Below, piece by piece: positions 32,709-60,139 of a stretch of DNA of 64,000 bases. Each line of letters starts with the position of its first letter. Position 1 is the first letter of the stretch. The stretch comes from Actinomycetota bacterium. Lineage in GTDB: Bacteria; Actinomycetota; Thermoleophilia; RBG-16-64-13. The stretch covers positions 7,482 to 71,481 of the forward strand of contig JAHJSA010000023.1 in the NCBI GenBank assembly GCA_018830645.1. The letters run 5' to 3'. The position numbers and the translations under genes were made by a program. The notes beneath the pieces are model-generated. The model did no database searches, was not told the DNA's origin, and saw only the letters and a program-made list of their open reading frames with translations.

Positions 32709-32751
32709 GCCGTATGTCCTCCTTCGAGTGTGGGGCGATCAGGCCGTTGCA

Positions 32752-34158
32752 CTACAGCTCCGCATTGAGCTTCTTTCGGAGGGTTTCGACGGAGGCTATC
32801 TCCACCCCCAACAGCCTCCCGATGCGCGCCTTGGCCGCCAGGCCTCGGGCGGCGCCCGGCATCGCCGTCACCACGCCGATATCGAGCTCCTCACGCAGTT
32901 CTCGCATGACCACCTCGTCGGAGAGGTCGCTGACGCCGACTCCGAGCTTGCCGGCCACGAACGCTTTCGCCTCTGAGATCCGCATCTTGCGATGGAGTTG
33001 CATCCTGGCGACCAGATCTCCGGCCGCGCGGATGCCCCCCATCCCGGAGGCGAGCACGTGTGCCATGGGCATCCCTACGGGATCGCCCACGCCCACCTAT
33101 AACCCGTCCACGCGCCCGATCTCCACCATGGCCACGCTCGCTCGGGTCACGGCGTCCACCGGCGGGGTCTCGCACATGGGCACTCCCCCCACTCCCATGC
33201 CCACATTCGCGTGTATAGGGATGGAAGCGGCCTCGGAACAGGCCTTGACGAAGGTAACCGCCCGGGCGACGTTCCACGCACACGACCTGCGGGTGTTGGT
33301 GTTGACGACAGGGCCGAACACGGCGGCGCCCGCCTTCTCGACCAACTTCACCTGCTGGTGCGGATAGAGACCGGCCAGCCGCTCTCCCTTGTACGTGACC
33401 TCGCCGTGCATGCCGAGTACGAACTCGGCGGCCATACCCACCTGGATCGACAGGTGCGTGTTCGCGGAGAGCTCCTCGACCGCCAGAAGAGTGGCCAGGA
33501 ACTCGGCATCGCCCGCCGAGGCGGTGGTGTCGAAGTCCAGACCGTCTGCTCCGGCGTCTGCCATCTTCCTACCCACGTACACCATGTCGCGGGTGCAGGC
33601 CTCGGCCGCTGCCAGCTGCGCCGCTCGGGCCTCCTCGATCTTGCCCTCAGGGAGCAGATCAGAGGGGTTGCCGAACGGGCCGTCGGGCCGGGCGTAGGTG
33701 GCCAGGTTCGGCATCGCCCCGTAATACACGGGGATGATGGTGCCGAGTAGCACGCTCTCCATGCATTGCTGCTCGTTGGCGACGATGGGCTTCACGGGTT
33801 TGTACGAGTAGTCCGGGTGGCCGAGTTCGATGGTGTCGAAGCCGAAGGCGCGCTCGAAGAGACGGATGGCCTGTTCTCGCGACACCGGCACCCCGACGCC
33901 GCTGTCTCCCTGCTCGGCGTACAACGAACCCGCCACGCCGTCGTCGCTGAGCACGACCTCACGGCCGGGCTCCACTCCCACGATGCGCCCGGGATAGGCG
34001 AAGAGGTCGAATAGGTGGTCGCGCTCCTGCTCGGTGATGGTAGGGATACGCCCGCGGTCGGCCGCGTCTTCCGTGCCGGCCAGGATGTCGGCACGGACCT
34101 TGTCCGAGGACATCGCCTCAACGCGCCCATCGCCCATGCGCATGCGGTGGCTCGGCAT
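32752..34158 (-). CDS. mtbB: Dimethylamine:corrinoid methyltransferase MtbB, pyrrolysine-containing (in-frame UAG at 33097..33099)
   Basis: Two adjacent in-frame track ORFs (33097..34158 and 32752..33096) separated only by TAG; junction ...[33 protein letters not shown] matches the MtbB Pyl site; N-terminus MRMGDG..GDSGVG is also MtbB-like; ~468 aa in total. Confidence 0.9.
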
Positions 34159-35639
34159 CAGTTTCCTCCTTGGTTCCGGGCCGGACGGCCCAGGTGTTTC
34201 GCGATGACCGCCTCAGCTTCCGGGGGCAACGGCGCTACAGAGTGCTTGGCGAGGATCCTTCGGGCAACGGCGAGCGCCCGAGCGTGGGCGTCCTCACCCC
34301 CGCGCTTCTCCCAGGCGCCCCGCATGCGACGGTCGATCACCTGAGCCTCCGACTGCTCGCGACGAGCCAGTTCCCGGGTATGCCTCTCGCGCAGGAAGTT
34401 GCCATCGGACCCTACTCTCAGAATGGATTCGAGACCGATGGAGGCGACATCGCTGCGGATGCCTTCGAGCACCCGCCGGTTCATGCGTGCGATCTCGTCA
34501 TCCATCACCATCTGACCGAAGTCGAAGGTCAGGCCTAATTCGAGCATCCCCATGCCATAGATCAGGTTGGCCCCTGCCAACGCTGGTAACAGACTGGTGA
34601 GGGTCTTCTCGTGGCCCGCCTGCACGTCGGGTAGTTTGCTGTCTGCCTAACCGCCGGCCACCCAGCAGGGCAGGTAGTAGAACTCACTCATCTCGGCGAC
34701 GGCGGCGGAGATGAGGGCGAGTTCGGGAGCTCCGACGGGCGCAGTGGCGTGGCGCAGGTCGAAGGTGGTGGTGCTGCTGCCGTAGATGACCGGAGCCCCG
34801 GGGCGGGTGAGTTGAGCGAGCGTAAGCGCCGAGAGCACCTCCGCGTTGTGGGTGACCATGGTGCCGGACAGGCTGATCGGACCGGTCGCCCCGGCCATGG
34901 CCATGGAGATGACGTTCGAGGCGATCCCGTGGCGCGCGCACCCCATCATGATCTCCGGGGTGGGCGAGTAGAGGGCCAGGGGACTCGTGGGGCAGGTGTC
35001 GATGGAGAATATGGGGCGCTCGCGCAAGGCTTCAGCCCCGCCGACCACCGCTGCCCCGATCTCGGCGAGTTCATCGATCTGCTCTCCGGTCTCGACGCCC
35101 GCGTGCACGTGCTTCGTGGTATTGCGGAGCGCCGCGACGAAGCCCTCCAGGTAGGCGCTCTCGGAGGGCACGTCGGTGGGCGTCACCGCCATCTCGAAGG
35201 TATCGCACATCTCGAGGGCGTCGCAGAGCCGAGCTATGCGGGCGAGATCGTCCAGGGTGGAGTCCCGGTGCTCCCCCGTCTCGAGATCGTAGACTTTGGT
35301 GCCCTCACCGAAGTTGGTGTAGCCCACCGAACGGCCGCCCATGAGGTAGTCGCGCTCGCCATCCCGCGAGGCCAGGAGGATCGTGCCCGGAGCCGACTCC
35401 AGTGCCTCTTCAACCACGTTCCGGGGGAAGCGGACAATCCGCGTGTGGGTGTCCACGACGCACCCTGCCCCGTCGAGGACATCGAGCGCCTCGTCCACCG
35501 GCACCTTCACACCGGCCGTCTCGAGAACGACCAGGGTGGCCTCATGGATCGCTTCCCGACCCGCGGCGCCCAACACATCGAAGCTGAGCCGCGGTACGCC
35601 CGCTCGCTCCTCATCCCTCAGCTTCTCTCTCCACCCCAT
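34158..35639 (-). CDS. mttB: Trimethylamine:corrinoid methyltransferase MttB, pyrrolysine-containing (in-frame UAG at 34647..34649)
   Basis: Track ORFs 34647..35687 and 34158..34625 share a frame across a single TAG: ...[51 protein letters not shown]; ~493 aa from ATG 35639 (RBS AAGGAAGG), Pyl at ~331 as in MttB. Confidence 0.9.
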
Positions 35640-35644
35640 ATGCC

Positions 35645-36169
35645 TCAGGCCTTCCTTTCCAGAGCGGGATCTTCGGGGACTTCCCACATATAGCTGAACT
35701 TCTCGTTCCCCAGGATGGTGAACACCTCGGTTGAGAGAATGCTCCCGCCCGGCGCGAGCGGGCCGCCGAGGAACTCAAGGAGCTCCTCGCTTCCTCGGAA
35801 CACGGCTTCCACCAGGAGGTTATAACGACCGGTGCAGTACCCCACCCAGCACACCCGGTTGAGTGCGGCGAAGGCGCGGGCGACCTCCCGCAGATCGCCT
35901 GCGACAACATTCACGCCGATCATGACGTTGATGGGATAGCCGGTGGCCGCAGGGTCCAGCAAACCCACGATCTGCATCACTCCGGTTTCGTGCAACCGTT
36001 CGATGCGTTTGCGCACCGTGGGCACGGACACGCCGGTGGCCCGCGCGATCTCCGCGTTCGGCAGGCGTCCGTCGCTCTGCAGGAGGGCGAGGATCTTGCG
36101 GTCCAGTGAATCAAGGTGCTCCGGACGCGGCTCGCTCCTCCGATGCTCGTCCACCAGACCCCCAGTCAA
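35645..36169 (-). CDS. Lrp/AsnC family transcriptional regulator
   Basis: N-terminal HTH (LDRKILALLQSDGRLPNAEIARATGVSVPTVRKRIERL) and C-terminal RAM ligand-binding domain; directly upstream of mttB. Confidence 0.8.
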   Translation of the reverse strand: MTGGLVDEHRRSEPRPEHLDSLDRKILALLQSDGRLPNAEIARATGVSVPTVRKRIERLHETGVMQIVGLLDPAATGYPINVMIGVNVVAGDLREVARAFAALNRVCWVGYCTGRYNLLVEAVFRGSEELLEFLGGPLAPGGSILSTEVFTILGNEKFSYMWEVPEDPALERKA

Positions 36170-36293
36170 GTGAGCAATGACTTCGCCAACGTATCGTTAT
36201 CGCTTCGATAAGTCAATCTCAACATTGATTACCGTTTCGATAAGTACGTCGCCGGAAGGAGCTTCGTATGCCCGCGCGGCGCGGGCATCGGAA

Positions 36294-44602: not shown

Positions 44603-46063
44603 CTACTCCTCCGCCGAGACGATGATCTTCTTCATCGCCTCGTGGACCGCGGGATCGAGCGGCATCGCCTCGTGGGTCTTCAGCAGATCGGCGGCCATAG
44701 CCTCGGCACGCGTCGCCACGTCGGTCCCACCTTTCTTCGTCCATGCTCCCCGCGTACGCCTGTCGAAGAGCTTCACCTTCGACTGCTCCGAGGGCATGTA
44801 CTTCAGCGTGTGCTTCTCCTTCAGGAAGTTCTTGCCCGAACCGATCTTGTGGATCACCTCGGTGCCGATGGTGTCGTTGTCCACGGGTGAACCGCGCACC
44901 ACGCGCTTGACCATCGAGGCGATCTCGTTGTCGATCAGGAGCTGTCCGTAGGAGAACGTGACACCCAGTTCGAGCATCCCCATACCGTATATCAGGTTGG
45001 ACCCTGCCAACGCTGGTAGCAGACTGGTGATGGTTTTCTCGTGCCCGGCCTGAGCGTCGATCACTTTGCTATCCGCCTAACCACCGGCAACGTAGCTCGG
45101 CAGATTGTAGTAGTTGGACAGTTCGGCCACCGCCGCGGAGATCATGCCCAGCTCTGGCGCCCCTACGGGGGCCGTGGCGTAGGTCATGTCGAACATGGTG
45201 GTGGAGCTTCCGTACATGGCGGGAGCGCCCTTGCTGGTGAGCTGCGCCAGCGTGAGGCCGGCCAGCACCTCTGCGTTGTGGGTGACCAGCGTGCCCGATA
45301 CCGACACCGGGCTCGATGCGCCCGACATGGCCATGCTGAGCACGTTGATGGGGCATCCCCAGCGCGCGCTCTCCATGATGACCTCGCAGGTCACCGTGTG
45401 GAGCATCAGGGGGCTGGTGGGGCACACCAGGGTGGAGACCAGCGGCCTCTCCCGGAGCTCCCTGTCGCCGCCCGCGATGAGCGCGGCCATCTCGAACATC
45501 TTGCGGGCGTTGGCACCCGAAGAGACGTCGATGTGATGCACGTGCTTACTCGTGTTCAGGAACGCGGCTTCGAGCATGTGCAGGTCGTATGAGGCGTCGG
45601 GCATGTCGCGAGCGACGACGGCCGTCGAGTACACGTCGACGTTCTCCATCGCGTCGCAGGCGAGCGCCGTCCTTCCCATGTCTTCCTTTGTGGTCTCGTT
45701 CACTTCGCCCGTCTCGGGATCGGTGACCATGATCCCGCAGCCGAAGTTGGTGTAGCCCACGTGCTTGCCGCCCATCCAGTAGTCGTACCTGGGATCGCGC
45801 GCCGCGAGCAGGATGCTGCTCGGGCACGACGCCAGGGCTTCCTCGACCACGTAGGCCGGGAACTTCACGATCTTGGTGGCACGATCGACGATGCAGCCGC
45901 CCTCTTCGAGAACGTCCACTGCTTCCTCGAGATGAACCTCGACCCCGGTCAGCCGGAGGACTTCCAGCGTGGCGTCGTGGATGGCGTCGAGCTGACTGCT
46001 CGAGTACATCCTGAGACCCCAGCCTTGGTATTCCTCCGTACTGGCTCTCGGTCCTCGGATCAT
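44603..46063 (-). CDS. mttB: Trimethylamine:corrinoid methyltransferase MttB (second copy), pyrrolysine-containing (in-frame UAG at 45077..45079)
   Basis: Track ORFs 45077..46165 and 44603..45064 are in frame across one TAG: ...[54 protein letters not shown]; paralogous to the 34158..35639 copy. Confidence 0.9.
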
Positions 46064-46106: not shown

Positions 46107-46772
46107 CTAGGAGACGGCTTCCTTGGCCTTCGCCACCGTCTCGGTGGCGCTCTCGGCGTAGACATCCGCGCCGATCTTGTCGGCCCAGTGCTGGGTGGCG
46201 GCGGCGCCGCCCACCATCGTCTTCACATTCCCCCTGATGCCCGCCTCGGTGAGGGCCGCCTCCAACTTGGCCTGATTCACCATGGTGGTGGTCATGAGGG
46301 CCGAGCTACCCACCAGATCGGCGTTGGTCTCCTGCGCCATGCGGACGAATTCGCCGATGGCCACGTCGCGGCCAAGGTCATGCACCTCGAACCCGGACAC
46401 GCCGAGAAGCGTGCCCACGATCGTCTTTCCGATGTCGTGCACGTCACCTTCGATCGTGCCGATGACCACCGTGCCGAGCTTCTCGACCGCCGATGCTTCG
46501 GGCAGGGCCTCTTCCAGTATTGCAAGCGCGGCCGTCATGCAGTCCGCGGCGATGATCATCTCGGGAAGGCTCATCTCTTCCGCCTCGAACATCTCCCCGG
46601 CCCGGCGCATGCCCACCGTGAACCCTTCCTGCAGGAGCCGGACTGGATCTAGACCGCTCTCCAACGCATCCTTGGCCAGCTGTACCGCACCGTCCTCATC
46701 GATGTCGAGGACGAGCTCCTGCGCCTTCTGGATGGCTTCCTCCATGCTAAGTGTCGCCATGTACCGGTTCAC
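46107..46772 (-). CDS. mttC: Corrinoid (cobalamin-binding) protein, MttC-like
   Basis: B12-binding domain with DxHxxG (GDVHDIGK) and SxL / GG motifs; N-terminal corrinoid cap helix; immediately upstream of mttB. Confidence 0.85.
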   Translation of the reverse strand: MNRYMATLSMEEAIQKAQELVLDIDEDGAVQLAKDALESGLDPVRLLQEGFTVGMRRAGEMFEAEEMSLPEMIIAADCMTAALAILEEALPEASAVEKLGTVVIGTIEGDVHDIGKTIVGTLLGVSGFEVHDLGRDVAIGEFVRMAQETNADLVGSSALMTTTMVNQAKLEAALTEAGIRGNVKTMVGGAAATQHWADKIGADVYAESATETVAKAKEAVS

Positions 46773-48395: not shown

Positions 48396-48412
48396 CTATC
48401 GACCCCCTTTCG

Positions 48413-48434
48413 TGCGATGCCTAGCAGCATCGCA
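48413..48434 (-). terminator. Perfect 8-bp GC-rich hairpin (TGCGATGC-n6-GCATCGCA) ~18 nt upstream of the membrane-protein start and downstream of pylC
   Basis: Inverted repeat read directly; no U-tract, so a terminator or RNA-stability/attenuator role cannot be distinguished. Confidence 0.3.
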
Positions 48435-48716
48435 GCCTCTAGAAACCCACCGACTCCAGATCCTCAGTGCCGATCCCCCCTCTCTTCGAGCCTCGGTGTA
48501 CTTGTATGGACAGGTACGCGAGAATGTCCGCGCCCCGGACGACCGCCTCATGATACCTGGACGCACCAACAATACGCAACAGACTCGCACCCATCCTGAA
48601 AGCCGCAGTGACCCCTGTCTCGTGCCTAGACAGGCTTGAGACACCACGGCCGCGACCCCCTGAGCAATCCGCTCGTGTGGGTGGCGCACCGAGCGCGGCA
48701 ACAGCCCGGGGGTGGG

Positions 48717-49904
48717 TCAACGAGCACCTCCCCCTATCGACCCAGTCCGTACGCTCACCGGGTCAGGCGTCGCCGACAACCCGGAGTCGCGCGCGAGCCG
48801 GCGAACGGCCTCCTCCGCGCGGGCACGTGCGTCTACCGCGTCGACGCCTACGCAGATCATGGTGGCCGACCAGGTCTCTCGCCCCTCGGCACGGTCCGTG
48901 AGCACCTCGTCCGCGCCGAAGGCGTCTTCCAGGAGCCGCAGCGGCCCCGCCGTGCTCATCACGTGTTCCCCGAGAACCTCCAGGCTGCCCATGGAGGCGT
49001 GCACGTGTTGGTAGCAGACTCCACGACCGCCCGGGGGCAGTGAGCCGGGGAGACCGGCGCCACGTGCGATATCCGCGACCAACGCCACCACATTGAGTCC
49101 CGTGGAGTGCAGTACCGCGGTGGGCGTCTGGCTGGGTAGCCGCGCGTCGATCTCGATCAGCCGCGGAACGTCGCCGTCCAACATGACCTCGACGTCCATG
49201 AGACCCACGAGCCCCATGCGTTCGGCAAGACGCACCCCGGCAGCGGACATGGCCTCGAGAGACCCTCCGGCCGCGGTCACCGGAGCGACCACGCGCTTGC
49301 AGTCGTACACGTGGTCGAACTCGAGCAACGTGGGCACCAGAGGCAGCGCCCCATCCGGCGTCCCGATCACCTCCAACGACAGCGAAGGCCCGTCGACGTA
49401 CTGCTGCACGACGACTTCATGACCCGCGGTCTCGAGCCTCTCTCGAGCCGCTTCGAGGTCGCTCTCGGTCCAGACGACGCTCACCCCCTCGCTGCCGCTC
49501 GACCCGCTCGGCTTGACCACCGCGGGGAAGCCGCACTCGGGCCACGGTAGGGGCCGCGGAACATCCAGTTCGGCGAAGAGACGGTCGGAACGAAGCTTCG
49601 AGCAGGAGAGCTCGTAGGAAGGAAGGTGGAAGGCCAGAGGTACACCCCAGGACGGCACGACTTCGCTCAGCCACCGCAGGGTCTTCAGGTCTTCGCAGGC
49701 GGGCAGGATCACGTCGCACGCTCCGAGCACCACCCGCGCTCGTTTCACGTCGGCCGTGACGTCGAACACGTGGCTCTCTGTTGCCAATCCCGAGGCGGGC
49801 GTGGCGGGCGCCCTATCGACGAGGACAACCTCGAATCCAGCCTTGATGCCCAAATAGACCGCCTCGGTCCCTTGTAGACGTCCTCCCACGACGCCCAGGC
49901 GCAT
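48717..49904 (-). CDS. pylC: Pyrrolysine biosynthesis ATP-grasp ligase PylC (3-methylornithine--L-lysine ligase)
   Basis: Start VVGGRLQGTEAVYLGIKAGFEVVLVDR... and the IEIDARLPSQTPT motif match PylC; ATG overlaps the pylB TGA. Confidence 0.9.
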   Translation of the reverse strand: MRLGVVGGRLQGTEAVYLGIKAGFEVVLVDRAPATPASGLATESHVFDVTADVKRARVVLGACDVILPACEDLKTLRWLSEVVPSWGVPLAFHLPSYELSCSKLRSDRLFAELDVPRPLPWPECGFPAVVKPSGSSGSEGVSVVWTESDLEAARERLETAGHEVVVQQYVDGPSLSLEVIGTPDGALPLVPTLLEFDHVYDCKRVVAPVTAAGGSLEAMSAAGVRLAERMGLVGLMDVEVMLDGDVPRLIEIDARLPSQTPTAVLHSTGLNVVALVADIARGAGLPGSLPPGGRGVCYQHVHASMGSLEVLGEHVMSTAGPLRLLEDAFGADEVLTDRAEGRETWSATMICVGVDAVDARARAEEAVRRLARDSGLSATPDPVSVRTGSIGGGAR

Positions 49905-51001
49905 CACCACTGGGCCTGCGCCCTCAACCCCGGAGCCTGCGTCCCGGCGAGCCAGCCTTCGTACTCCGGCAAGGAGGCCACCTTCAACCCGAGGGGAGCG
50001 AGATGCCGCTCCACTCCGGCCACGGTACGGAAGCCCTCATCGATGTCGAGCGTTGACTGTGAGACTCCGGCCAGCCCGCTTGCGGGAGGGATGATGGATG
50101 TGACGACGTTGGCGCCCGCACGCAGGCGGGCCTCCAGACCCCGAAGGCCGTCGATGTCGAGAGAGGCTGGGATCAGGCGATCGGGCATGGTGAGCCGCAT
50201 GGTGGCTAAGGTGACCATCTCGGCCAGCAGGGTGGGCGTGTCGAGGCCGCCCATAGGAGTGCCCTTCTGGGGGACGAAGCCCATCACCCGCACCTGCTGC
50301 ACACCCTGCGCCCTCATGGTGACGAGGGAGCGCGCCCGGTCGGCGGCCGTCTCGCCCACACCCAGAAGGATGCCGTCTTCAGCGTGTAGTCCAGCGCCCA
50401 GGGCCCGGCTCCTCGCGCCGACACGCGCCGCGAAATCCTGCCCCGGCCGAAGCTTGCGGAACAACTGCGGTGAGTGGGTCTCCTGGTAGCAGGCATACCA
50501 GTCGGCCCCCGCCTCGGCGAGCTGCCGCAGCACGGCATCCGGCACCACGCCCGGAGACACCATCACCGGCACCCCTGCCGCTCCTCGGACGTCCGCCACG
50601 AGTTCCACCAGATGGTCGAACCGGCCGGCGTCGTGGATCTCCGGGTCCTCCCCCAGGGTCAGATCCACGAGGTGCACGCCCGAGCCGGCCAAGCCGCAGG
50701 CTATCTCGACCACCTCAGCCGCGGTCTTGCGGTACCGGGGACTCGCGTCGTTGCCCTTGCGGTAGAAGCAGAACGTACAGCGATTGCGGCAATACGTCGA
50801 GAAGTAGACGAAACCGTATAGAAAGATCTTGCGCCCGAAGTAGCGCTCCCTCAGTCTCTGCGCGGTGTCGAAGATGAGAGCGGCCTCATCCGGCTCCTGC
50901 ACTTCGAGCAGCGTCTCGATCTCGGGCACCCGGAGGCGTTCCCCCGCGAGCGCGCGCTCGACGATCGCTTCCACTTCCCGGCGTCGTGGCCGTCCGGTCA
51001 C
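49904..51001 (-). CDS. pylB: Pyrrolysine biosynthesis radical SAM enzyme PylB (3-methylornithine synthase)
   Basis: FVYFSTYCRNRCTFCFY radical SAM cluster motif; RLIPASLDIDGL...AGANVVTSIIPP matches PylB; GTG start at 51001 (residue 179 of the track ORF) preceded by a G-rich RBS. Confidence 0.9.
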   Translation of the reverse strand: MTGRPRRREVEAIVERALAGERLRVPEIETLLEVQEPDEAALIFDTAQRLRERYFGRKIFLYGFVYFSTYCRNRCTFCFYRKGNDASPRYRKTAAEVVEIACGLAGSGVHLVDLTLGEDPEIHDAGRFDHLVELVADVRGAAGVPVMVSPGVVPDAVLRQLAEAGADWYACYQETHSPQLFRKLRPGQDFAARVGARSRALGAGLHAEDGILLGVGETAADRARSLVTMRAQGVQQVRVMGFVPQKGTPMGGLDTPTLLAEMVTLATMRLTMPDRLIPASLDIDGLRGLEARLRAGANVVTSIIPPASGLAGVSQSTLDIDEGFRTVAGVERHLAPLGLKVASLPEYEGWLAGTQAPGLRAQAQW

Positions 51002-51012
51002 CTGCGAACCCC

Positions 51013-51900
51013 CTATTCCTCCGCGACCGGATGCGATCCCGGCCGGGTGCCTTGTACGTTGAGGCGCGCCCCGTCGAGGTACACGAGACTCCTCCCTACC
51101 GGGTGGATACGAGACCCACCCGTCTGCATCATGGCTAGACGCTCGAGGCCGAACCCCCACCCGGCCCACGGACCGTTGACGCCCCACTGCTCGTCGAGTG
51201 GGTGCGGTCCGACGACGCCTGAGGCCACCTCGATGCCGCGCACCTCCACATCGAACGTCGCGCCATATACGCCGGAATCGGTCTCGACGATCTTGTATTG
51301 CAGGCCCAGGGGCCTCATGGCGACATCGGCCAGCATCCGCAGGCGATCGGCGGGGTCGCCGCTCGGCTCGAACTCCACAAGGTTGAGCATGGTGAACTCC
51401 GAGAGGTGGTTCGAGCCCTTCGACTCCTTGCGGAAACAGGGTCCCACTTCGAAGATGCTCACGGGGGGCGGCCATAGCCGTTGGAGGTGACTGAGCAGGT
51501 AGTAGAGGTTCGGTGCCAGCATCGGGCGCAGGCATCGGTCGGTGTCGACCCAGTACACCTGGCGCCAGAGCGGGTGTACTTCACCGATCCCCATCTTCGC
51601 CAGGGCGCCCTTGCTCATCATGAGCGGCGTGGCCACCTCGACGAAACCATCCGCCACCAGCGCCGCGACCAAGACCGACTCCACCGTGCGCAGCACCGGG
51701 CGTCGCCTCTCGGTGCGCAGAGAGTCGAGCCGATCGACGTTCGCCTGGCTGAGTTCCCGATGGTTCCCCTCGTAGCGGGCGTCGCGCTCCTCAGCCGAGT
51801 CGAACGTGTCGGCCAGCGCGGCATCGTCAAGCCCGATCTCGGCTAAGCGCTGCCTCTGCTGCGGCGAGAATCCGAGTGCGATGTCTCCCTGGCCTATCAC
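51013..51900 (-). CDS. pylS: Pyrrolysyl-tRNA synthetase, C-terminal catalytic subunit (PylSc)
   Basis: Class II aaRS motifs conserved with PylS: CLRPMLAPNLY, FEVGPCFRKES, EFTMLNL, GPHPLDEQWG, GFGLERL; GTG start overlaps the pylSn TGA (GTGA). Confidence 0.9.
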   Translation of the reverse strand: MIGQGDIALGFSPQQRQRLAEIGLDDAALADTFDSAEERDARYEGNHRELSQANVDRLDSLRTERRRPVLRTVESVLVAALVADGFVEVATPLMMSKGALAKMGIGEVHPLWRQVYWVDTDRCLRPMLAPNLYYLLSHLQRLWPPPVSIFEVGPCFRKESKGSNHLSEFTMLNLVEFEPSGDPADRLRMLADVAMRPLGLQYKIVETDSGVYGATFDVEVRGIEVASGVVGPHPLDEQWGVNGPWAGWGFGLERLAMMQTGGSRIHPVGRSLVYLDGARLNVQGTRPGSHPVAEE

Positions 51901-52262
51901 ACGAACGAGGTGCTCTCGAACTTCTCGAGCTTCCAGGATGGTATACGGCACCGCGGACACGGCTCGTCGTAGATCTTGTTGCGCAGATGACGGGCGACCC
52001 GACTGTTCCGGGAGTTCCGCATGCGGATGTCATGCCCGCAGTGCGTCTGCAACTCCACGAACCCGCCCCTGAGCTTCACCGAACGGACGCCATGCAACAG
52101 GCCGGTCTTCGACGGCCACAGCTTCACCTTCTCGATCACCCCGTAGGGGGCGGCATGCCGCCGCACCGTGCGCTTCTTCGCGCCGGGGATAGGAGCCAAG
52201 ACCCAGTCGGGCAGCTTCCCGCCTGTCCCAACGTCTCCGTTCGTGGAGCCGACCACGTCCAC
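51897..52262 (-). CDS. pylSn: Pyrrolysyl-tRNA synthetase N-terminal tRNA-binding domain protein (PylSn)
   Basis: 121 aa; LQTHCGHDIRMRNSRNSRVARHLRNKIYDEPCPRCRI closely parallels the Zn-binding region of the Methanosarcina PylS N-terminal domain; GTG start 45 nt downstream of pylT. Confidence 0.85.
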   Translation of the reverse strand: MDVVGSTNGDVGTGGKLPDWVLAPIPGAKKRTVRRHAAPYGVIEKVKLWPSKTGLLHGVRSVKLRGGFVELQTHCGHDIRMRNSRNSRVARHLRNKIYDEPCPRCRIPSWKLEKFESTSFV

Positions 52263-52307
52263 CTACCGCCCGCCCTTCCTCTCACCACTCTCTTCTGCAT
52301 GATGGTG

Positions 52308-52379
52308 TGGAGGAGAGTCCGGGAGTCCAACCCGGCTACGAAGATTTAGAGTCTCCGCGGTCATGCCGACCAACCCTCC
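52308..52379 (-). tRNA. pylT: tRNA-Pyl (CUA anticodon) gene pylT
   Basis: Minus-strand 72-nt sequence GGAGGGTTGGTCGGCATGACCGCGGAGACTCTAAATCTTCGTAGCCGGGTTGGACTCCCGGACTCTCCTCCA folds with a 7-bp acceptor stem, single U8, a 4-bp D stem with 5-nt D loop, a 6-bp anticodon stem, loop CU-CUA-AA, a 3-nt variable loop and a 5-bp T stem. These are the hallmark atypical features of tRNA-Pyl. Confidence 0.85.
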
Positions 52380-52457: not shown

Positions 52458-53486
52458 TTAGACCGCCGCCTCTTCCGCGGCCTCCACCATGGCCCTCAGG
52501 TTCTCGGTCTCCGCCGAAGGCGGCACCGAGCAGCCGGGAGCGATCATGTCGTAGCCATCGGCCAGAGCCTTACGCACGTCGTTCTTCACGTCCTCGGGCG
52601 TGCCGGAGAAGAGCGTCACCACCGCGTCCACACCGCCGATCAGGGCGATGTGCCGGGGGAACCCGCGCAGCACCTCTTTGGCGGCGACGGCATCCACCGA
52701 CGGCTCCACGCTGATCGCGGTCACACCGGTCTCGGCGACCTCCGCCATGATCGGGTTGAGCTTCCCGCAGATGTGCATGATCGTGAGAACGCCGGGGAGG
52801 TTGGCGATCTGCTTCGCCTCATACGGCTGAGCGAGGTTGCGGAAGATGGGCGGGCTGATCACGTCGATCGAGGCCATCATGTCTTCGATGACGATGATGT
52901 CCGCACCCGCGTCCACAAGGGCTTTGCCCAGCATGGTGCCGGCCTGCTCGGCCACTTCCATGAGGGGCACCAGGCTCTCCGGCTTCTTGAAACTCGCCTT
53001 GAGTGCGTCGGTGATGCCGATCAGATTGGCCACGATCGAGAAGGGGCCGACGATGTTGCCCATCACCGCGACATCGTCGCCAACGGCTTCCTTCATCAGC
53101 CGCACGGCCTCGATCAATTCAGGCACGCGTCCGCGGGTGAGGAAGTCGTCGGGAAGAGCGATCTCGTCCCCGGCGTGGAAGGCGTGCACGTCGATACGCG
53201 GGATACCCTCGCGCCCGGCGTACTTGACGGTGCAGCCCAGAGCCTCGCTCTCGACGGTCTGGCAGTACGGGGCACGCACAGCGTCGAAGCCGAGTACGGA
53301 GTGGGCCGCCAGAGCCAGTTTGGCCATCGACTCGGCCTTCTGGTGGGCCTCCGGCCATTCCGCTCCACACGCGTCCATCTGCGCATAGGTCGCCGTCTGG
53401 TTGGCCGAGAAGACCGGTGGACGGTCCACGGGCAAACCGGCAAGCGCTGCTAGTACACGTTCCTTCGAAGTCATCACACCTCTCAC
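52458..53486 (-). CDS. Uroporphyrinogen decarboxylase (URO-D) family methylcorrinoid methyltransferase (MtbA/MtaA/MtqA-like)
   Basis: 342 aa URO-D fold typical of the methylcobamide:CoM / methylcorrinoid:tetrahydrofolate methyltransferases that partner with corrinoid proteins; lies between pylT and mtbB. Confidence 0.8.
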   Translation of the reverse strand: MRGVMTSKERVLAALAGLPVDRPPVFSANQTATYAQMDACGAEWPEAHQKAESMAKLALAAHSVLGFDAVRAPYCQTVESEALGCTVKYAGREGIPRIDVHAFHAGDEIALPDDFLTRGRVPELIEAVRLMKEAVGDDVAVMGNIVGPFSIVANLIGITDALKASFKKPESLVPLMEVAEQAGTMLGKALVDAGADIIVIEDMMASIDVISPPIFRNLAQPYEAKQIANLPGVLTIMHICGKLNPIMAEVAETGVTAISVEPSVDAVAAKEVLRGFPRHIALIGGVDAVVTLFSGTPEDVKNDVRKALADGYDMIAPGCSVPPSAETENLRAMVEAAEEAAV

Positions 53487-54887
53487 CTATCCCATCTTCG
53501 CTTTCAGTCTGTCCACACTGTTGATACTGATACCGAGCAATTCTGCGATACGGATCTTAGCCTCTATCCCCTTGGCGCATCCGGGCACTGAGGTGATCAC
53601 ACCTATGTCGAGGTCTTCGCGCATCTCCCGCATCACCGTGACCTCGGAGAGGTCGGCGACGCTGATCTTCAGCTTGTCGGCCACGTAGGCTTTGGCTTCC
53701 GGTAGGCGCATCCTGCGCGCGAGCTGCATCCGAGCGACCAGGTCTCCGGCCGTACGGATGCCGCCCATACCAGCGGCCACCCCGTGGGCGATGGGCATCC
53801 CGTAGGGATCGCCCACACCCACCTATAATCCGTCGACGCGGGCGATCTCGACCATCGCGACCGAGGCCCGCGAGACACTGTCGATAGGCGGGGTCTCGAA
53901 CACCGGGGAGCCACCCACCCCCATGCCCATGTTCACGTGCACCGGGATGTTGGCCACCGCGGTGACCGCCTTGACGAAGGTGACGGCGCGGGCAAGGTTC
54001 CAGGCCATCGACTTGCTGGTGTTGGTGTTCACGACAGGTCCGAAGATGTCGCCTCCGGCCTTCTCGACGAGACCAACTTGGTGGTGCGGGTAGAGCCCGG
54101 CGAGACGCGTGCCGTCGTACTCGAGCTCGCCGTGGATACCGAGTACGAACTCCCCGGCCATGCCAACCTGGATCGCAAGATTCGGGTGTTTGGCCTTCAG
54201 CTGCTCGACTGCCTGAAGCGAGGCTTTGAAGTCCGCGTCGCCCGCCGCGCCCGTCGTATCGAAGTTCACGCCGTCGGCGCCCACCTCGGCCAGCTTGCCG
54301 CAGATGTAGACGATGTCGCGGGTCGCGTGCTCGACCGCCAGTTCCTGGGCCTCACGCGCCTCCTTGATCTTGCCCATCGGCAGGAGGTCGGAGGGGTTGC
54401 CGAACGGGCCGTCGGGCGCGTAGTAGGTGCCGAGGTTCGGCATGGCTCCGTAGAAGATGGGCACGATGGTGCTGAGCAGGATGTTCTCGAGCGCCTGCTG
54501 CTCCTGGGCGATGATCGGCTTGACCGGCTTCCAGGAGTAGTCCACATGCCCGAGTTCCATGGTATCGGCCGCGAAGGCCCGCTCGTGCACCTGCACGCCC
54601 TGCAACCGGCTCAGCGGGATACCGACCCCGCTGTTGCCTTGGTCGCCGTCGAGGCGCAACGTGCCGATGTCGTGCGTGAGTACGACCTCGTTCCCCGAGT
54701 CGACGCCCACTACGCGCGCATTGCTCTTGAAGAGGTCGAGCAGGAAGTCGATCTCGTCGTCTTTGAGGGGTGGGATGCGGCCGCGATCGGCTGCGTCTGC
54801 GGAGCCGGCGATCAGATCGGCCTTCAGCTCGTCAGCCGTCATATCGATCACGTGCCCGTCCCCCATCCGGGTCGGGTACTTCGTCAT
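53487..54887 (-). CDS. mtbB: Dimethylamine:corrinoid methyltransferase MtbB (second copy), pyrrolysine-containing (in-frame UAG at 53823..53825)
   Basis: Track ORFs 53823..54887 and 53487..53822 abut in frame across TAG: ...[33 protein letters not shown]; N-terminus [24 protein letters not shown] is MtbB-like. Confidence 0.9.
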
Positions 54888-54942: not shown

Positions 54943-55590
54943 CTACCCCTGCACCAACTCGAGGGCCTTCTGCACGGCCTCCTGGGCGTTCTCGGCGTAG
55001 GCGTCGGCGCCGATCTTGTCGGCCCAATACTGAGTGACGACCGCCCCGCCCACCATGGTCTTCACCTGGTCGCGGATGCCCGCCTCCTTCAGCATCTTCT
55101 CCAAGGCCTTCTGCCCGACCATCGTCGTGGTCATGAGGGCCGAGGTACCCACGATCGCGGCCCCCGTCTCCTTGACCTTCTCGACGAACGTGTCCAGGGG
55201 GACGTCGCGGCCGAGGTCCACCACATCGAAGCCGTACACCCGCATCAGGGTCGCCACGATGCCTTTGCCGATGTCGTGCACGTCGCCCTCGATCGTGCCG
55301 ATGACGGCCGTGCCGGCCTTCTTCTCTCTCTGATCCTCGGGAAGCGACGCCTCTAGAATAGCGACGGCCGCAACCATGGCCTCAGAAGCAAGGATCACCT
55401 CCGGCAGGAACATGGTGCCCCGTTCGAAGAGGTCGCCCACGTCGCGCATGCCCGGAGTGAATCCCTCGTTGATCACCTTGAGGGGGTCGAGGCCCAGCTT
55501 CACCGCCTCAGTCGCAATCGCCTTCGCCTCGTCCTCATCGGCCGACACCACAGCCTTGGCTGCGGCTTCGAGCAATTCTTGTTCTGTCAT
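54943..55590 (-). CDS. mtbC: Corrinoid (cobalamin-binding) protein, MtbC-like
   Basis: B12-binding domain with GDVHDIGK (DxHxxG) and the corrinoid cap; upstream of mtbB. Confidence 0.85.
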   Translation of the reverse strand: MTEQELLEAAAKAVVSADEDEAKAIATEAVKLGLDPLKVINEGFTPGMRDVGDLFERGTMFLPEVILASEAMVAAVAILEASLPEDQREKKAGTAVIGTIEGDVHDIGKGIVATLMRVYGFDVVDLGRDVPLDTFVEKVKETGAAIVGTSALMTTTMVGQKALEKMLKEAGIRDQVKTMVGGAVVTQYWADKIGADAYAENAQEAVQKALELVQG

Positions 55591-55759: not shown

Positions 55760-57370
55760 TTAGAGCCAGAAGATGGCGTAGGCGGTGAATACCACCGCCA
55801 CACCTGCAGCCAGAGTCACATAGGGCAACACTCCGGCCTTGCGGGGACCGAGTTCAGTCTCGCCCGCGGGCAACAGGTCCGCCCACATGTGGTCGGGGAA
55901 CTTGCCCTTGTCGGTGATGTAGTGCCTCACGGCGAACACTGGGATGACGAGAGCGGCAGATACGAAGCCCGTGGCCAGTGTCCCGGGACCCCACACGTTG
56001 GCCCCCGCGCCCAGAAGGAACGCGTTCACGAACGCCAGTACTACACCTGCGCCCAAGAGGAAGTTGGGGGCGCGCCACGGCCGAGGTACGTGCTTGTTGT
56101 CGATGCGGTGGATCCACCCGGCGTTCAGGTTGAGGAAGTTGAAGATCAAGTAGTTCACGTTCGACACGGCAAGCACGAACAAGTAGTCCGACATCAGCAG
56201 GAGGATCAGGTTGAACGTGAGGTCGGTCCACATGGCGCGGGTGGGCGCCCCGTGAGGGTTCACGTGATCCAGGTACTTGGGCAGCCATCCGTCGACGCCA
56301 CCCTGGTAGAGGGTGCGCGAAGAACCGGCCATCGAGGTCATCACGGCCAGCAGGAGGGTGAACACGAGCATGACCACCAGGACGTTGGTGACGACAGCGC
56401 CGCCGCCGACCATACCGGCCAGGGCTTCGCCGACGCCCGCTCCGCTGGCGATACCCGGTTCGAGCATGCCCTCTGTTCCCAAGACGCCCTGGAAGGCCAC
56501 CGGCACCACGACGTACACGGCGATGCACAGGAGGCCGGAGTAGAGGATGGCGCGAGGGGTATCGCGGCCCGGGTTCTTGAACTCACTTGTGTAGCAGATG
56601 GCGGTCTCGAACGCGTAGGCCGACCAGGCCGCGATGAACAGACCGCCCATGAAGAGCGTCCACCCACCCAGATCCCACGAACCCGCGATGACGTTGCCGG
56701 CATCATCCAAGGCGAGCGGGGTGAACGGCGAGAAGTTGCTGAGTGAGACATCGCCGGTGAGCAACGGCACGACGCTCACGACGAGCAGCGGCATGAGCGC
56801 ACCCACGGCAAGTACTGTCTGGATCCGGGCGGTGCGCAGGATGCCGTGGTGCTGCATGGCGAACACCGCGAGGAGCATGGCTGCACCGATGAAGAAGGTG
56901 GCGTTCACACGGATCGACAGGTCATCCTTGAGGAAGTCGAGCGGTATCAGCGTCACCTGCCACGTGTTGATCGCGGCGTCAGGCGCAAAGAAGATCGAAA
57001 GAAGGTAGCCCGCGCCGAGACCGCAGCCGATGGCCAGCACCGGGGTCCAGGCGAGCCAGTTGCACCAGAGCGAGACCGGCGCCAAGAGCTTGCTGTAGCG
57101 CACCCAGGCCGTGGCGCCATACACAGAAGCCCCTCCCGACTTGCTGGGGAAGAGGCCGGCGATCTCGGCGTAGGTGAACGCTTGGATGAAGCCGAACAGA
57201 ACGGAGATGGTCCACACGAGCCAGGCCGGCGCCCCCACGGTCGCCGAGATGCCCCCCATGGAGAAGAGCACCAGCGCGGGCACGCCGATCGCGACCCAGA
57301 AGGCCCCCTTCCAGTCGATATCGCGCTTCAGAACACCGGCCTCGTGCGACACGTACGTTTCCGATGACAT
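55760..57370 (-). CDS. APC-superfamily permease (amino acid/polyamine/organocation), candidate methylamine transporter
   Basis: 536 aa, ~12 TM, APC-type Gly-rich helices; located between the mtbC and mtmB genes. Confidence 0.75.
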   Translation of the reverse strand: MSSETYVSHEAGVLKRDIDWKGAFWVAIGVPALVLFSMGGISATVGAPAWLVWTISVLFGFIQAFTYAEIAGLFPSKSGGASVYGATAWVRYSKLLAPVSLWCNWLAWTPVLAIGCGLGAGYLLSIFFAPDAAINTWQVTLIPLDFLKDDLSIRVNATFFIGAAMLLAVFAMQHHGILRTARIQTVLAVGALMPLLVVSVVPLLTGDVSLSNFSPFTPLALDDAGNVIAGSWDLGGWTLFMGGLFIAAWSAYAFETAICYTSEFKNPGRDTPRAILYSGLLCIAVYVVVPVAFQGVLGTEGMLEPGIASGAGVGEALAGMVGGGAVVTNVLVVMLVFTLLLAVMTSMAGSSRTLYQGGVDGWLPKYLDHVNPHGAPTRAMWTDLTFNLILLLMSDYLFVLAVSNVNYLIFNFLNLNAGWIHRIDNKHVPRPWRAPNFLLGAGVVLAFVNAFLLGAGANVWGPGTLATGFVSAALVIPVFAVRHYITDKGKFPDHMWADLLPAGETELGPRKAGVLPYVTLAAGVAVVFTAYAIFWL

Positions 57371-57453
57371 CTATCCCCCCAATCTAGGTCTGACGGGTGT
57401 GGATCCGGGGTGGGGCGGCGCACGCCGCCCCACCCCGGATCCCCGGGCGTCTT

Positions 57454-58878
57454 CTACCAGTGCTTGTAGTTGACGCCGAGATCCTGCATCGCTTTCACGG
57501 CTTCGTCGTACACGGCCAAATACTCGGCGGTGGGAACGACCTTGATCGGGTCGTAGCACTCGTCGAACGGCTGACCCGCCGGCGCCGTCTTGTAGTCTTT
57601 CTCGTAGCTGCCCACCAGAGCGTCGAGGATACGGTTGGCCTCTTCGAGCGGCATCCCGGCCACCGCGTGGGCGACCTCGCCCATGAAGCGGGCCTCGAGC
57701 CCCGTGGTCTTGTTCGTGGCCACGCCTTTGGCCGAGGCAACTCCGGAGAGTATCTCGCGACCGCTGACGGTGTCGGTGATGGACTGAGCCGCAGTCTCGA
57801 GCAGGCACATCTTCGTGCCGGGCCCCGCGACTGTGTAGTACTGGTTGCCCAACATCAGGTTCGTGTGCTCCTCGATGGCCCGTGCGCAGTGCCCGGCTAC
57901 CGCCAGCGGCTCCCTGGCCGTGGTGATGCCCCACCGCACGTGGATGGGCCCGTCGAGATGCCACGTCGCCTGCGTCATCACGAACGCGTTCAACGTGGTG
58001 GCCACGTCGACGATGGTGGTCTCTTCGAGTCCACCCGCGTACCCTCCGAAGATGGGCATCTGCTCGCACATGATGATGTTCCCGGCTAGTACGTAATGAG
58101 CGGTGAAGGTCAACGCACCTACGTCGATCTTCAGCTCATTGAGCTGGGACACTTCATGGCTGTCAGACTGCCGCATCCCCCCGGGGAAGTCGGCTGCGAT
58201 GACTCCACCGGGAGACAGGGACGTCTCATTGCCCTATAACCCCATCCCGGGCCTGCCGGCCCTTGCCTGAGCCAGGCGGACCTGGTAGGCCTCTTGCCTC
58301 ACGGCAGCAATCTCCCACGGGCTGTTCGGTGTGGGGTCGTAGCCGTTGATCGTCTGCATCACCCCGTCCACGATGGTGTCTACGATGCTTTCCTTCGCGT
58401 AGGATTCGTGGATCGGCAGGAAGAGCGGCTCGGAGCATGGAGCCCCGGTAGGCCCTCCTTGGATCACCGGCGGCCTGGTGTCCTTGTGACTGCGAGGGCT
58501 CAGGAGCCGCGAATCACGCCCCTCCCCCAGCACGCAGGACTTGGGCGCCGCTGCAATACTGGCCCACACCTCTTCTTCCGTGTACTTGATCACGCGCCCG
58601 GTATCCATGCAGTAGATACCGCACTCCACCAGCATCTCCATGCCGGCTTTGAAGAGGTTGGCTACCAGTGCGGGGTCCGTGGGGACCATGACCTTCTTGT
58701 CCATCTGGATGCCGTGCTTCTCTTTCAAACGCGAGGCCGTCTTGGGGATGATCTCGTAGTCCCACGCGTTCTCATCCACACGCTGGCCGGTCTTCGCACG
58801 GTTGAAGGCTTCGAAGACGGTGACCTTCTGCGCTAGCGCCACGTTGGCTTCCCCCCTTTCTCTCGATCGGATGTGCAT
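57454..58878 (-). CDS. mtmB: Monomethylamine:corrinoid methyltransferase MtmB, pyrrolysine-containing (in-frame UAG at 58234..58236)
   Basis: Track ORFs 58234..58878 and 57454..58176 are in frame across TAG: ...ARAGRPGMGL-TAG-GNETSLSPGGVIAADFPGGMRQSDSHEVSQLNELKID, colinear with the MtmB Pyl-202 region (AGRPGMGV-O-GPETSLS...TDSHEVSQLNELKID); ~474 aa. Confidence 0.9.
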
Positions 58879-58891
58879 TGAGTCGGCCGGT

Positions 58892-59542
58892 TCATCCGCT
58901 GACCAGTTCGATGGCCACCTTCACTGCGTCCGCGGCATTGTCGGCGTAGCCGTCGGCGCCTATCTTGTCCACCCACTCTTGGGAGACGGGGGCACCGCCG
59001 AACAGGCACTTGACGTTGTCGCGGATGCCGATCTCGATGAGGCCGTTCACGATCTCGCGCTGGGCGGGCATCGTGGTGGTCATCAAGGCCGAGCCCGTGA
59101 CGATATCGACGTTCTCCGCCTTGGCCTTCGCCACGACGTCGTCTACGGGGACATCGCGGCCCATGTCGATGACTTCGAAGCCGTTGGCGGCGAACATCGT
59201 CTTCACGATGTTCTTCCCGACGTCATGGATATCGCCCTGCACCGTGTGGCAGATCACCTTGCCTCGGCTCATGGCGCCCCGCTCGTCGGCGGTCATCCCC
59301 TCCGTCAGAATTTCCACAGCCCCTTGAAAGGCTTCCGCCGCGATAATGATCTGCGGAACGAACATCTCGCCCTCATCGAACAGGTCGCTGATGATGTTCA
59401 TGCCCTTCGAGAGTCCCTCCTGGATAGCATCCACAACCGTGATCCCGGCCGCCTTCGCCTCGTGCGCCGCCTCTGCGGCCACCTCGGGCTCGAGTTCCGA
59501 TACCCCCGAGGCCAGTTTCGCTAGGATCTCTTCTCGATTCAC
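58892..59542 (-). CDS. mtmC: Corrinoid (cobalamin-binding) protein, MtmC-like
   Basis: B12-binding domain with GDIHDVGK; first gene of the mtmCB-type unit. Confidence 0.85.
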   Translation of the reverse strand: MNREEILAKLASGVSELEPEVAAEAAHEAKAAGITVVDAIQEGLSKGMNIISDLFDEGEMFVPQIIIAAEAFQGAVEILTEGMTADERGAMSRGKVICHTVQGDIHDVGKNIVKTMFAANGFEVIDMGRDVPVDDVVAKAKAENVDIVTGSALMTTTMPAQREIVNGLIEIGIRDNVKCLFGGAPVSQEWVDKIGADGYADNAADAVKVAIELVSG

Positions 59543-60139
59543 CTACTCACCCCCTCGCTCCTAGGTCCGTTTGCCGAATACACGTTGCCGGCGACACATG
59601 ATCACTGCCGTGCACCCGACCCCGTATAGGGAGATCCCTGTCGCCGCAGGCCGACTACTGCATGCTGCGTCTCCCCCAACACACGCCCGGCGGGCCCTCT
59701 GCCACAACCCATCTAGACAGGTGCGCGCCGGGCCAAGCAGAGCTACTTTACGTACCGCGAAAGCATATGTCAAACCCCTCTGGACGAGTTCGACTGTACG
59801 GTCATACAGGGCTGGAGGCCGCCCAGACCTCGGTGCCATCCTCGCGAAGCCCCCGTCTAGACCGCTTGACAGGAATCCGCGTAGTGACTAATGTTGCGAG
59901 CGTTGAGTTGAAACCGCCGGGGGGCGGATGAGGGCGGACGCTCAGGGGGGCTCCGAAGAAGGATTCCGGCAGGGCCTGCGTATGCTCGGGGTCAAGCGGG
60001 AGCACTTCAGACCTCTCGACCGACCTCCCGTGGCAGCCAGGAGCGTGCAACTCCGGAAAGGGGGCCGACTTCGTACACCCGCGTCTCACGCGTGTACCGC
60101 TAGAACCAATACCGTAGCCACATCGAGAAAGGGGGGAAC
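59543..60139. promoter_or_regulatory. ~600-bp lower-GC divergent intergenic region between the mtmC operon start and the small-membrane-protein operon
   Basis: Longest non-coding stretch in the window and lower GC than the flanks; no ORF with coding character; must carry promoters for both divergent units. Confidence 0.4.

Follow-up and report, generated by a model that had tools for sequence, protein, structure and literature searches.

Background

Monomethylamine methyltransferase MtmB1 of Methanosarcina barkeri (PDB 1L2Q, 1NTH, 1TV2-4) is the enzyme in which pyrrolysine (Pyl), the 22nd amino acid, was discovered. A class of pyrrolysyl-tRNA synthetase (PylRS) split into PylSn and PylSc has been described, together with the adjacency of pylSn and pylSc in archaea that carry it (PMC9630628). 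PylRS genes were counted in two Actinobacteria in 2022 (PMC9630628), a count repeated in PMC11764691; beyond the PMC9630628 count, nothing was found in the literature on Pyl-dependent methylamine metabolism in Thermoleophilia or on pylB, pylC or pylD in Actinobacteria. Here, an mtmB gene with an in-frame amber codon (TAG in DNA, UAG in mRNA) is analyzed, which is located within positions 57454..58878 of a 64-kb stretch of the actinobacterial contig JAHJSA010000023.1. This whole stretch is called the window, and coordinates refer to it unless another locus is named; all mtm, mtb, mttB and pyl features lie on its minus strand. An earlier reading made from the letters alone (the sequence-only reading) had claimed that the amber codon occupies the conserved Pyl site. 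With a probability of about 0.8, the gene is a genuine and functional Pyl-type monomethylamine methyltransferase gene, for which we infer both pyrrolysine insertion and enzyme activity.

The mtmB gene and its pyrrolysine codon

On the minus strand, 57454..58878 translates into 474 codons in one frame, in which the sole internal stop is a TAG (complement of 58234..58236). Both the list of open reading frames (ORFs) and the public gene calls of the source contig split the gene into ORFs of 214/202 and 240 aa, as the sequence-only reading had described for this codon; the splitting of Pyl genes in two by automated annotation is a known pitfall. Its statement that both halves share a single frame holds as well, a frameshift having been looked for and not found, and the flanks that it quoted, AGRPGMGL-*-GNETSLSPGG and, further on, GGMRQSDSHEVSQLNELKID, are found word for word in the minus-strand translation. 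That reading had given no strand, and a plus-strand reading of the same interval was rejected because its translation is meaningless.

Of the extent proposed earlier, the end at 57454 stands, whereas the start at ATG 58878 does not. This ATG is a TCG in the 96%-identical mtmB of L005, a locus of the Actinomycetota metagenome-assembled genome (MAG) LH_M24, and in-frame stops occur upstream in L006. A GTG, TTG or ATG start with GAGAAAGGGG before it is common to the mtmB relatives, GAGAAAGGGG being kept in L005, L006 and L008. Because this start is conserved while ATG 58878 is not, the coding sequence is placed at 57454..58842 (462 codons including the UAG), with a GTG start at 58842..58840 and a terminal stop at 57456..57454 that is itself a TAG. 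A Shine-Dalgarno-like AAAGGGGGG can be read at 58851..58859, 8 nt upstream of this GTG. Counted from it, the in-frame UAG at 58234..58236, taken as the pyrrolysine codon, is codon 203, and the junction peptide expected in the read-through product is ...PGMGL-O-GNETSLSPGGVIAADFPGGMR with Pyl at position 203.

The read-through protein matches Pfam PF05369 with 719.5 bits (cutoff 25) over profile positions 1-449 of 450, the TAG being spanned, and M. barkeri MtmB1 (PDB 1L2Q/1NTH) with an E value of 1e-169 and 57.5% identity over 449 aligned positions. In the gapless HMMER alignment to these structures, query residue 215 (codon 203 from the GTG start) falls on chain residue 202, which is printed as X in 1L2Q, that is, pyrrolysine (Pyl-202). 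The comparison with M. barkeri MtmB1, which the sequence-only reading had named as the way to test its claim, places the TAG on the Pyl column, and together with the full-length family match it bears out the identification of mtmB with an in-frame amber codon at the Pyl site. When 17 homologues from MAGs or isolates of Actinomycetota, Bacillota and Desulfovibrio are aligned, the Pyl column reads TAG in 16 and TGT (Cys) in one, L004. The set includes 13 loci found by scanning a single genome for each GTDB species and two from the protein database. Four further methyltransferase genes of the window, two mtbB and two mttB, likewise contain one internal TAG each, located at the expected break of the respective family. 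Because the mtmB TAG lies on the single Pyl column of its family and four other window genes show the same, its placement is far beyond chance.

The sequence behind the TAG evolves as coding sequence. Relative to L005, the ratio of nonsynonymous to synonymous substitutions (dN/dS) is 0.05 over the whole gene; it is 0.06 in the 202 codons that precede the TAG and 0.04 in the 259 codons beyond it, at a dS of about 0.42 (0.43 for the 3' part); GC content at third codon positions (GC3) is 0.85 in the 259 codons, as in real genes. The dN/dS of 0.04 over these 259 codons indicates that the 3' part is translated and constrained. These values bear on the notion that mtmB is decaying, with the UAG acting as a terminator and only a 202-residue fragment being made, whether by nonsense mutation or by Pyl shortage after loss of pylD. 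The two ORFs of the public gene callers would fit such decay, as would the lack of pylD and the frequent use of TAG as a genuine stop in this genome (both below), but mtmB has neither a frameshift nor an extra stop, its TAG sits on the ancestral Pyl column, the same amber pattern recurs in the four other methyltransferase genes, and the pyl genes, too, are constrained. Decay is accordingly regarded as improbable.

A second notion holds that the two ORFs represent a split gene, the separately made polypeptides of which assemble, the second one being initiated at ATG 58176. An ATG with a 240-codon open frame is indeed present 19 codons past the TAG. However, these 19 codons, GNETSLSPGGVIAADFPGG, are conserved in every homologue and can be aligned with the solved structure, a Shine-Dalgarno sequence before 58176 is absent, and the catalytic Pyl would be lost, which makes this arrangement exceedingly improbable.

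It should be noted that MtmB entries of the protein database with a sense residue at the Pyl column can pass mistakenly for non-Pyl variants. P0001 and P0003 are stored with Q at this column and P0004-P0008 with K, all apparently uninterrupted, and they were considered as non-Pyl variants and set aside, as they look like artefacts of translation or storage. The DNA underlying P0001 has TAG, and the Q of its protein entry is probably due to gene calling with a code that reads TAG as Gln. As PDB itself gives residue 202 of the solved MtmB1 sequence sometimes as X and sometimes as K, the K entries are, by analogy, probably cases of Pyl rewritten as K. A real sense codon at the Pyl column (TGT, Cys) is present only in P0002/L004, which may be a naturally Pyl-free variant inside an otherwise TAG-bearing clade. 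This 67%-identical MtmB (L004 554..1951, Logan SRR15661548) has genes for a corrinoid protein and a URO-D-family protein as neighbours.

Genes for decoding and synthesis of pyrrolysine

The genes pylT, pylSn, pylSc, pylB and pylC are found 5-10 kb from mtmB, all on the same strand. ARAGORN predicts pylT, a tRNA-Pyl with a CUA anticodon, at 52308..52379 (minus strand); it is identical to the L005 copy, folds into a compact cloverleaf and belongs to a set of eight pylT genes from Actinomycetota, Bacillota and Desulfovibrio loci with a mean column identity of 92%. The N-terminal, tRNA-binding subunit of PylRS is encoded by pylSn (51897..52262, minus; TIGR03912, 101.5 bits, cutoff 51) and the catalytic subunit by pylSc (51013..51960, minus; TIGR02367, 283.6 bits, cutoff 178; start at 51960 or 51900), so that the window genes belong to the split class described in PMC9630628. 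They are followed by pylB for methylornithine synthase (49904..51100, minus, start approximate; TIGR03910, 439.7 bits, cutoff 348) and pylC for 3-methylornithine--L-lysine ligase (48717..49910, minus; TIGR03909, 311.7 bits, cutoff 248). The order pylT-pylSn-pylSc-pylB-pylC (window 51897..52379) recurs in other loci (L005 13738..15104; L007 5215..6556), and no pylSn was detected upstream of pylSc in the Bacillota loci compared. The pyl genes and the Pyl-dependent genes are under purifying selection, with dN/dS values of 0.05-0.21 for the pyl genes relative to L005 (pylSc 0.21, pylB 0.13, pylC 0.17). As a side observation, the pylSn stop overlaps the candidate pylSc GTG as GTGA (51897..51902), and a one-base change would fuse both genes.

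Given these components, the following course can be proposed. The ribosome would meet the UAG at codon 203 of the mtmB mRNA, where Pyl-tRNA(Pyl)(CUA), charged by the split PylSn+PylSc, would insert pyrrolysine in competition with release factor 1, giving rise to a 461-residue MtmB. The Pyl side chain would then activate monomethylamine, the methyl group would be transferred to the Co(I) corrinoid of MtmC, and an mtbA-like URO-D-family methylcorrinoid methyltransferase (MT2) would pass it on to a C1 carrier. The PylD step would be supplied from elsewhere in the genome or in some other way.

Missing pylD

Several observations weigh against reading mtmB as a functional Pyl-type gene, beginning with the biosynthetic pathway, whose last step requires PylD (3-methylornithyl-N6-lysine dehydrogenase). 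In the window and its two flanks on the source contig (L020 and L023), which cover about 75 of the 218 kb of this contig, pylD was not found with PylD queries from M. barkeri (sequence confirmed against PDB 4J43), L007, L008, L009 and L022. The M. barkeri query finds pylD in ten other loci at E values of 1e-26 to 1e-34, and finds none in L005. In L007, L008 and the Sporomusa loci pylD adjoins pylC, and in L011, L013 and L015 it comes after pylB.

At the site where the gene would be expected, a probable 3'-terminal remnant of a deleted pylD is located at 48624..48686 (minus), within the 320-nt gap (48396..48716) after pylC. The C-termini of L008 and L022 PylD both match these same 63 nt (E 0.06-0.07 window-wide), about 21 codons, in which 12 of 21 residues are identical to L022 PylD; a 53-nt DNA match at 72% falls within them as well. 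The undeleted state is represented by L022 (2902..3813), in which pylB-pylC-pylD are followed by an SSF transporter, and in L005 (17386..18703) pylC is directly followed by the same transporter type without pylD. A protein-database search with the actinobacterial L008 PylD, a search that relies on shared 5-residue words, returned 19 hits, none attributable to the samples of the window; the three most plausible (P0124, P0125 and P0128) were considered as the PylD of the window's genome and dismissed, as they come from other samples or assemblies.

These findings allow a different view, in which the lineage of the window and LH_M24 has deleted pylD yet keeps pylT, pylSn, pylSc, pylB and pylC along with at least five UAG genes under selection, the Pyl step being replaced, scavenged or altered. 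As a whole, this scenario appears unlikely. For mtmB it would mean a Pyl-type gene whose UAG is read with something other than self-made authentic pyrrolysine, candidates being a PylB/PylC intermediate, another lysine derivative accepted by a permissive PylRS, Pyl scavenged from other community members, or the work of a non-orthologous dehydrogenase. The lack of pylD from the window and both flanks, the remnant at the expected site, the same lack after pylC in the related L005 next to its retention in L022, and the failure to trace any PylD in the protein database to the sources of either genome all speak for it, and the purifying selection on pylS, pylB, pylC and the Pyl-dependent genes indicates that the system is in use. 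On the other side, MAGs are incomplete and only the said part of the contig is covered, pyl genes are dispersed in some genomes, the PylD search is word-based with just 19 hits, and the keeping of pylB and pylC fits best with a normal pathway that is completed. On balance, a reading of UAG with something other than self-made pyrrolysine is doubtful, and the Pyl-type mtmB with authentic pyrrolysine is preferred.

Should the deletion be real and no pylD be present elsewhere, the consequence would be a non-orthologous last enzyme, scavenged pyrrolysine, or another PylB/PylC-derived amino acid at UAG, each of which would amount to a naturally occurring variant of the system for the 22nd amino acid. 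If the absence holds genome-wide, how pyrrolysine is completed or replaced becomes a testable question.

UAG as an ordinary stop codon

A further point that counts against the functional Pyl-type reading is the use of the same codon for termination. TAG is the stop of 21 of the 49 assigned window genes (43%), including mtmB, mtbB, mttB, mttC, mtbC and pylSc, with in-frame extensions of 0 to 937 codons past these stops, and backup stops close behind the TAG stops are not enriched in the window. The genome of the window does not avoid TAG despite its UAG-decoding tRNA. With TAG common as a stop and no close backup stops, UAG suppression must therefore be partial or conditional. The TAG stop of mtbB copy 1 leads into a same-frame GTG start of the mtbA-like gene (...KMG*VRG...; 53480..53492, minus), a junction conserved in L005 (12620..12635); because this GTG follows directly in frame, amber read-through would give an MtbB-MtbA fusion. 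Wider recoding of UAG was also considered. The other same-frame ORF pairs that meet at a TAG (1044, 18448, 24254) proved to be unrelated genes separated by ordinary stops, so that there is no evidence for genome-wide recoding.

The most economical account of the UAG ambiguity is that Pyl-tRNA competes with release factor 1. Other Pyl-using bacteria express their pyl genes conditionally, and such regulation may, by analogy, contribute here as well. With TAG as the normal stop of about 43% of its genes, the genome would be a clear natural example of ambiguous UAG decoding, which has to be kept in check by expression or competition and not by codon avoidance.

Another point on this side concerns RNA structure. 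No significant RNA element was detected 3' of the mtmB UAG, the single-sequence fold having a z score of -1.0 relative to shuffles and the RNAalifold consensus fold reaching -11.8 kcal/mol with a weak covariation term of -0.27. The minimum free energy fold contains a hairpin at 58177..58215 (minus) that begins 19 nt 3' of the UAG and is possibly similar to a pyrrolysine insertion sequence (PYLIS). Across 11 homologues, 90% of its cells are paired, a value reached by 11-14 of 500 shuffles, so that by the calibration of the tool the hairpin does not stand out from shuffled controls; it is kept mostly via one-sided G-C to G-U changes at third codon positions.

Methylamine genes around mtmB

The corrinoid gene mtmC that the sequence-only reading had placed next to mtmB is present directly upstream on the same strand (58892..59542, minus); it encodes a B12-binding protein (PF02310 and PF02607) and is 94% identical and syntenic in L005. 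Both genes are probably transcribed together. Sigma-70 and terminator scans around mtmCB returned one weak promoter-like site (59773..59745) and nothing else significant. The stretch that separates the mtmB stop from the permease gene contains a GC-rich inverted repeat with perfect arms of 20 bp (GGATCCGGGGTGGGGCGGCG / CGCCGCCCCACCCCGGATCC; 57401..57442, not assigned to a strand), which probably forms a hairpin at which the transcript ends or is processed, as its sequence suggests. This repeat was not called by the scan for consensus intrinsic terminators because it has no T-run. Read-through of the terminal TAG of mtmB would add 41 further codons and cross this repeat.

Downstream of mtmB, the order continues with an APC-family permease (55760..57370, minus; PF13520, 247.8 bits), a candidate methylamine transporter lying between the mtm and mtb genes, an mtbC-like corrinoid protein gene (54943..55590, minus; PF02310 and PF02607), and mtbB copy 1 for dimethylamine methyltransferase (53487..54887, minus; PF09505). 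The latter has its in-frame TAG at 53823..53825, its ORF breaking at profile position 353 of 463 and resuming in the same frame. The mtbA-like MT2 gene (52458..53486, minus; PF01208, 243.7 bits) precedes the pyl genes, which are followed by an EamA transporter, mttC and mttB, completing the order mtmC, mtmB, permease, mtbC, mtbB, mtbA-like gene, pyl genes, EamA transporter, mttC and mttB; the order of the mtm, mtb and pyl genes recurs in L005, L007 and L008. Trimethylamine methyltransferase is encoded by mttB copy 1 (44603..46063, minus), whose TAG at 45077..45079 is spanned by a same-frame read-through (...VAGG*ADSK...) and which is 85% identical to L008 mttB; its partner mttC is at 46107..46772.

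A second cluster (32752..35639) carries mttB copy 2 (about 35639..34158, minus; TAG at 34647..34649) and mtbB copy 2 (34158..32752, minus; TAG at 33097..33099), both with same-frame read-through. Beside it are an AsnC/Lrp-type regulator at 35645..36196 and an uninterrupted MttB-superfamily gene without internal TAG (31215..32738, minus; 507 aa). A similar uninterrupted gene is found in L020 (13121..14608; 495 aa), and both presumably use a non-Pyl substrate such as a quaternary amine. A further split MTTB pair of 330 + 123 aa (L020 14784..16247) is located on the source contig just outside the window, past its right end.

The host

Apart from methylamine genes, the window encodes PolA, LeuRS, UvrB, ribosomal protein S1, GlnA and CarB, at a GC content of 65%. 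Its LeuRS is 100% identical to a protein deposited at NCBI under "MAG: Actinobacteria bacterium", 93% identical to the LeuRS of LH_M24, which is encoded on the same contig as L005, and shares 82% identity with a protein from a Thermoleophilia MAG, the Thermoleophilia being the closest relatives with a name. The source contig is also represented by k141_60652 of ENA ERZ27247117 (218 kb) and occurs in Logan SRR6514730. Because PolA, LeuRS and other housekeeping genes are in the same window and the LeuRS matches actinobacterial proteins, the Pyl island is chromosomal in an uncultured high-GC actinobacterium, and the sequence similarities suggest that this host is probably related to Thermoleophilia.

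Comparison with known systems

Like M. barkeri MtmB1, the window MtmB is colinear over 449 residues, has its UAG at the same column (Pyl-202), shares the flanking motifs RPGMG-O-G-ETSLS and DSHEVSQLNELKID, and is encoded next to its corrinoid partner. Unlike M. barkeri, the host is a bacterium, with a PolA-type polymerase, an actinobacterial LeuRS and 65% GC, and coenzyme M is unlikely to be its methyl acceptor; moreover, no significant PYLIS-like structure was found in the window mtmB.

Closer relatives are found among bacterial Pyl-type loci. In Sporomusa silvacetica, Sporomusa sp. KB1, Ca. Formimonas warabiya, Dethiobacter, Syntrophomonadaceae and Desulfovibrio MAGs, MtmB is 71-77% identical, TAG is at the same column, mtmC lies directly upstream, and pylT and pylS/B/C are nearby in most. 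These loci differ from the window in carrying pylD, in a GC content of 45-47% versus 65%, and in having no pylSn match directly upstream of pylSc. Even closer are the Actinomycetota MAGs LH_M24 (JAGXFW01), SKS1.bin6 and Soudan_30 and the Thermoleophilia MAG FR_37, whose MtmB proteins are 82-96% identical and have TAG; these are probably the kind of genome behind the "two Actinobacteria" of PMC9630628. LH_M24 shares with the window the order mtmC-mtmB-permease-mtbC-mtbB-mtbA-pylT-Sn-Sc-B-C, while Soudan_30 and FR_37, unlike both, retain pylD after pylC. Non-Pyl members of the MtmB family, for example from Acidimicrobiia and Marinimicrobia MAGs, belong to the same Pfam family and have the same length, but they are far more distant (about 35% identity) and carry a sense codon where the Pyl-type genes have TAG, for instance for G or H (P0028 and P0075); the window MtmB clusters with the TAG-bearing clade.

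Thus, the window mtmB is an orthologue of the textbook Pyl enzyme and as such nothing conceptually new, in a host that has rarely been reported. Its value lies in its context, namely the lineage, the coexistence of five Pyl codons with heavy use of TAG as a stop, and the puzzling lack of pylD near the other pyl genes. Set beside the known systems, it shows that a chromosomal contig of high-GC Actinomycetota carries a large Pyl-dependent gene set for mono-, di- and trimethylamine, in which at least five UAG genes lie within 64 kb.

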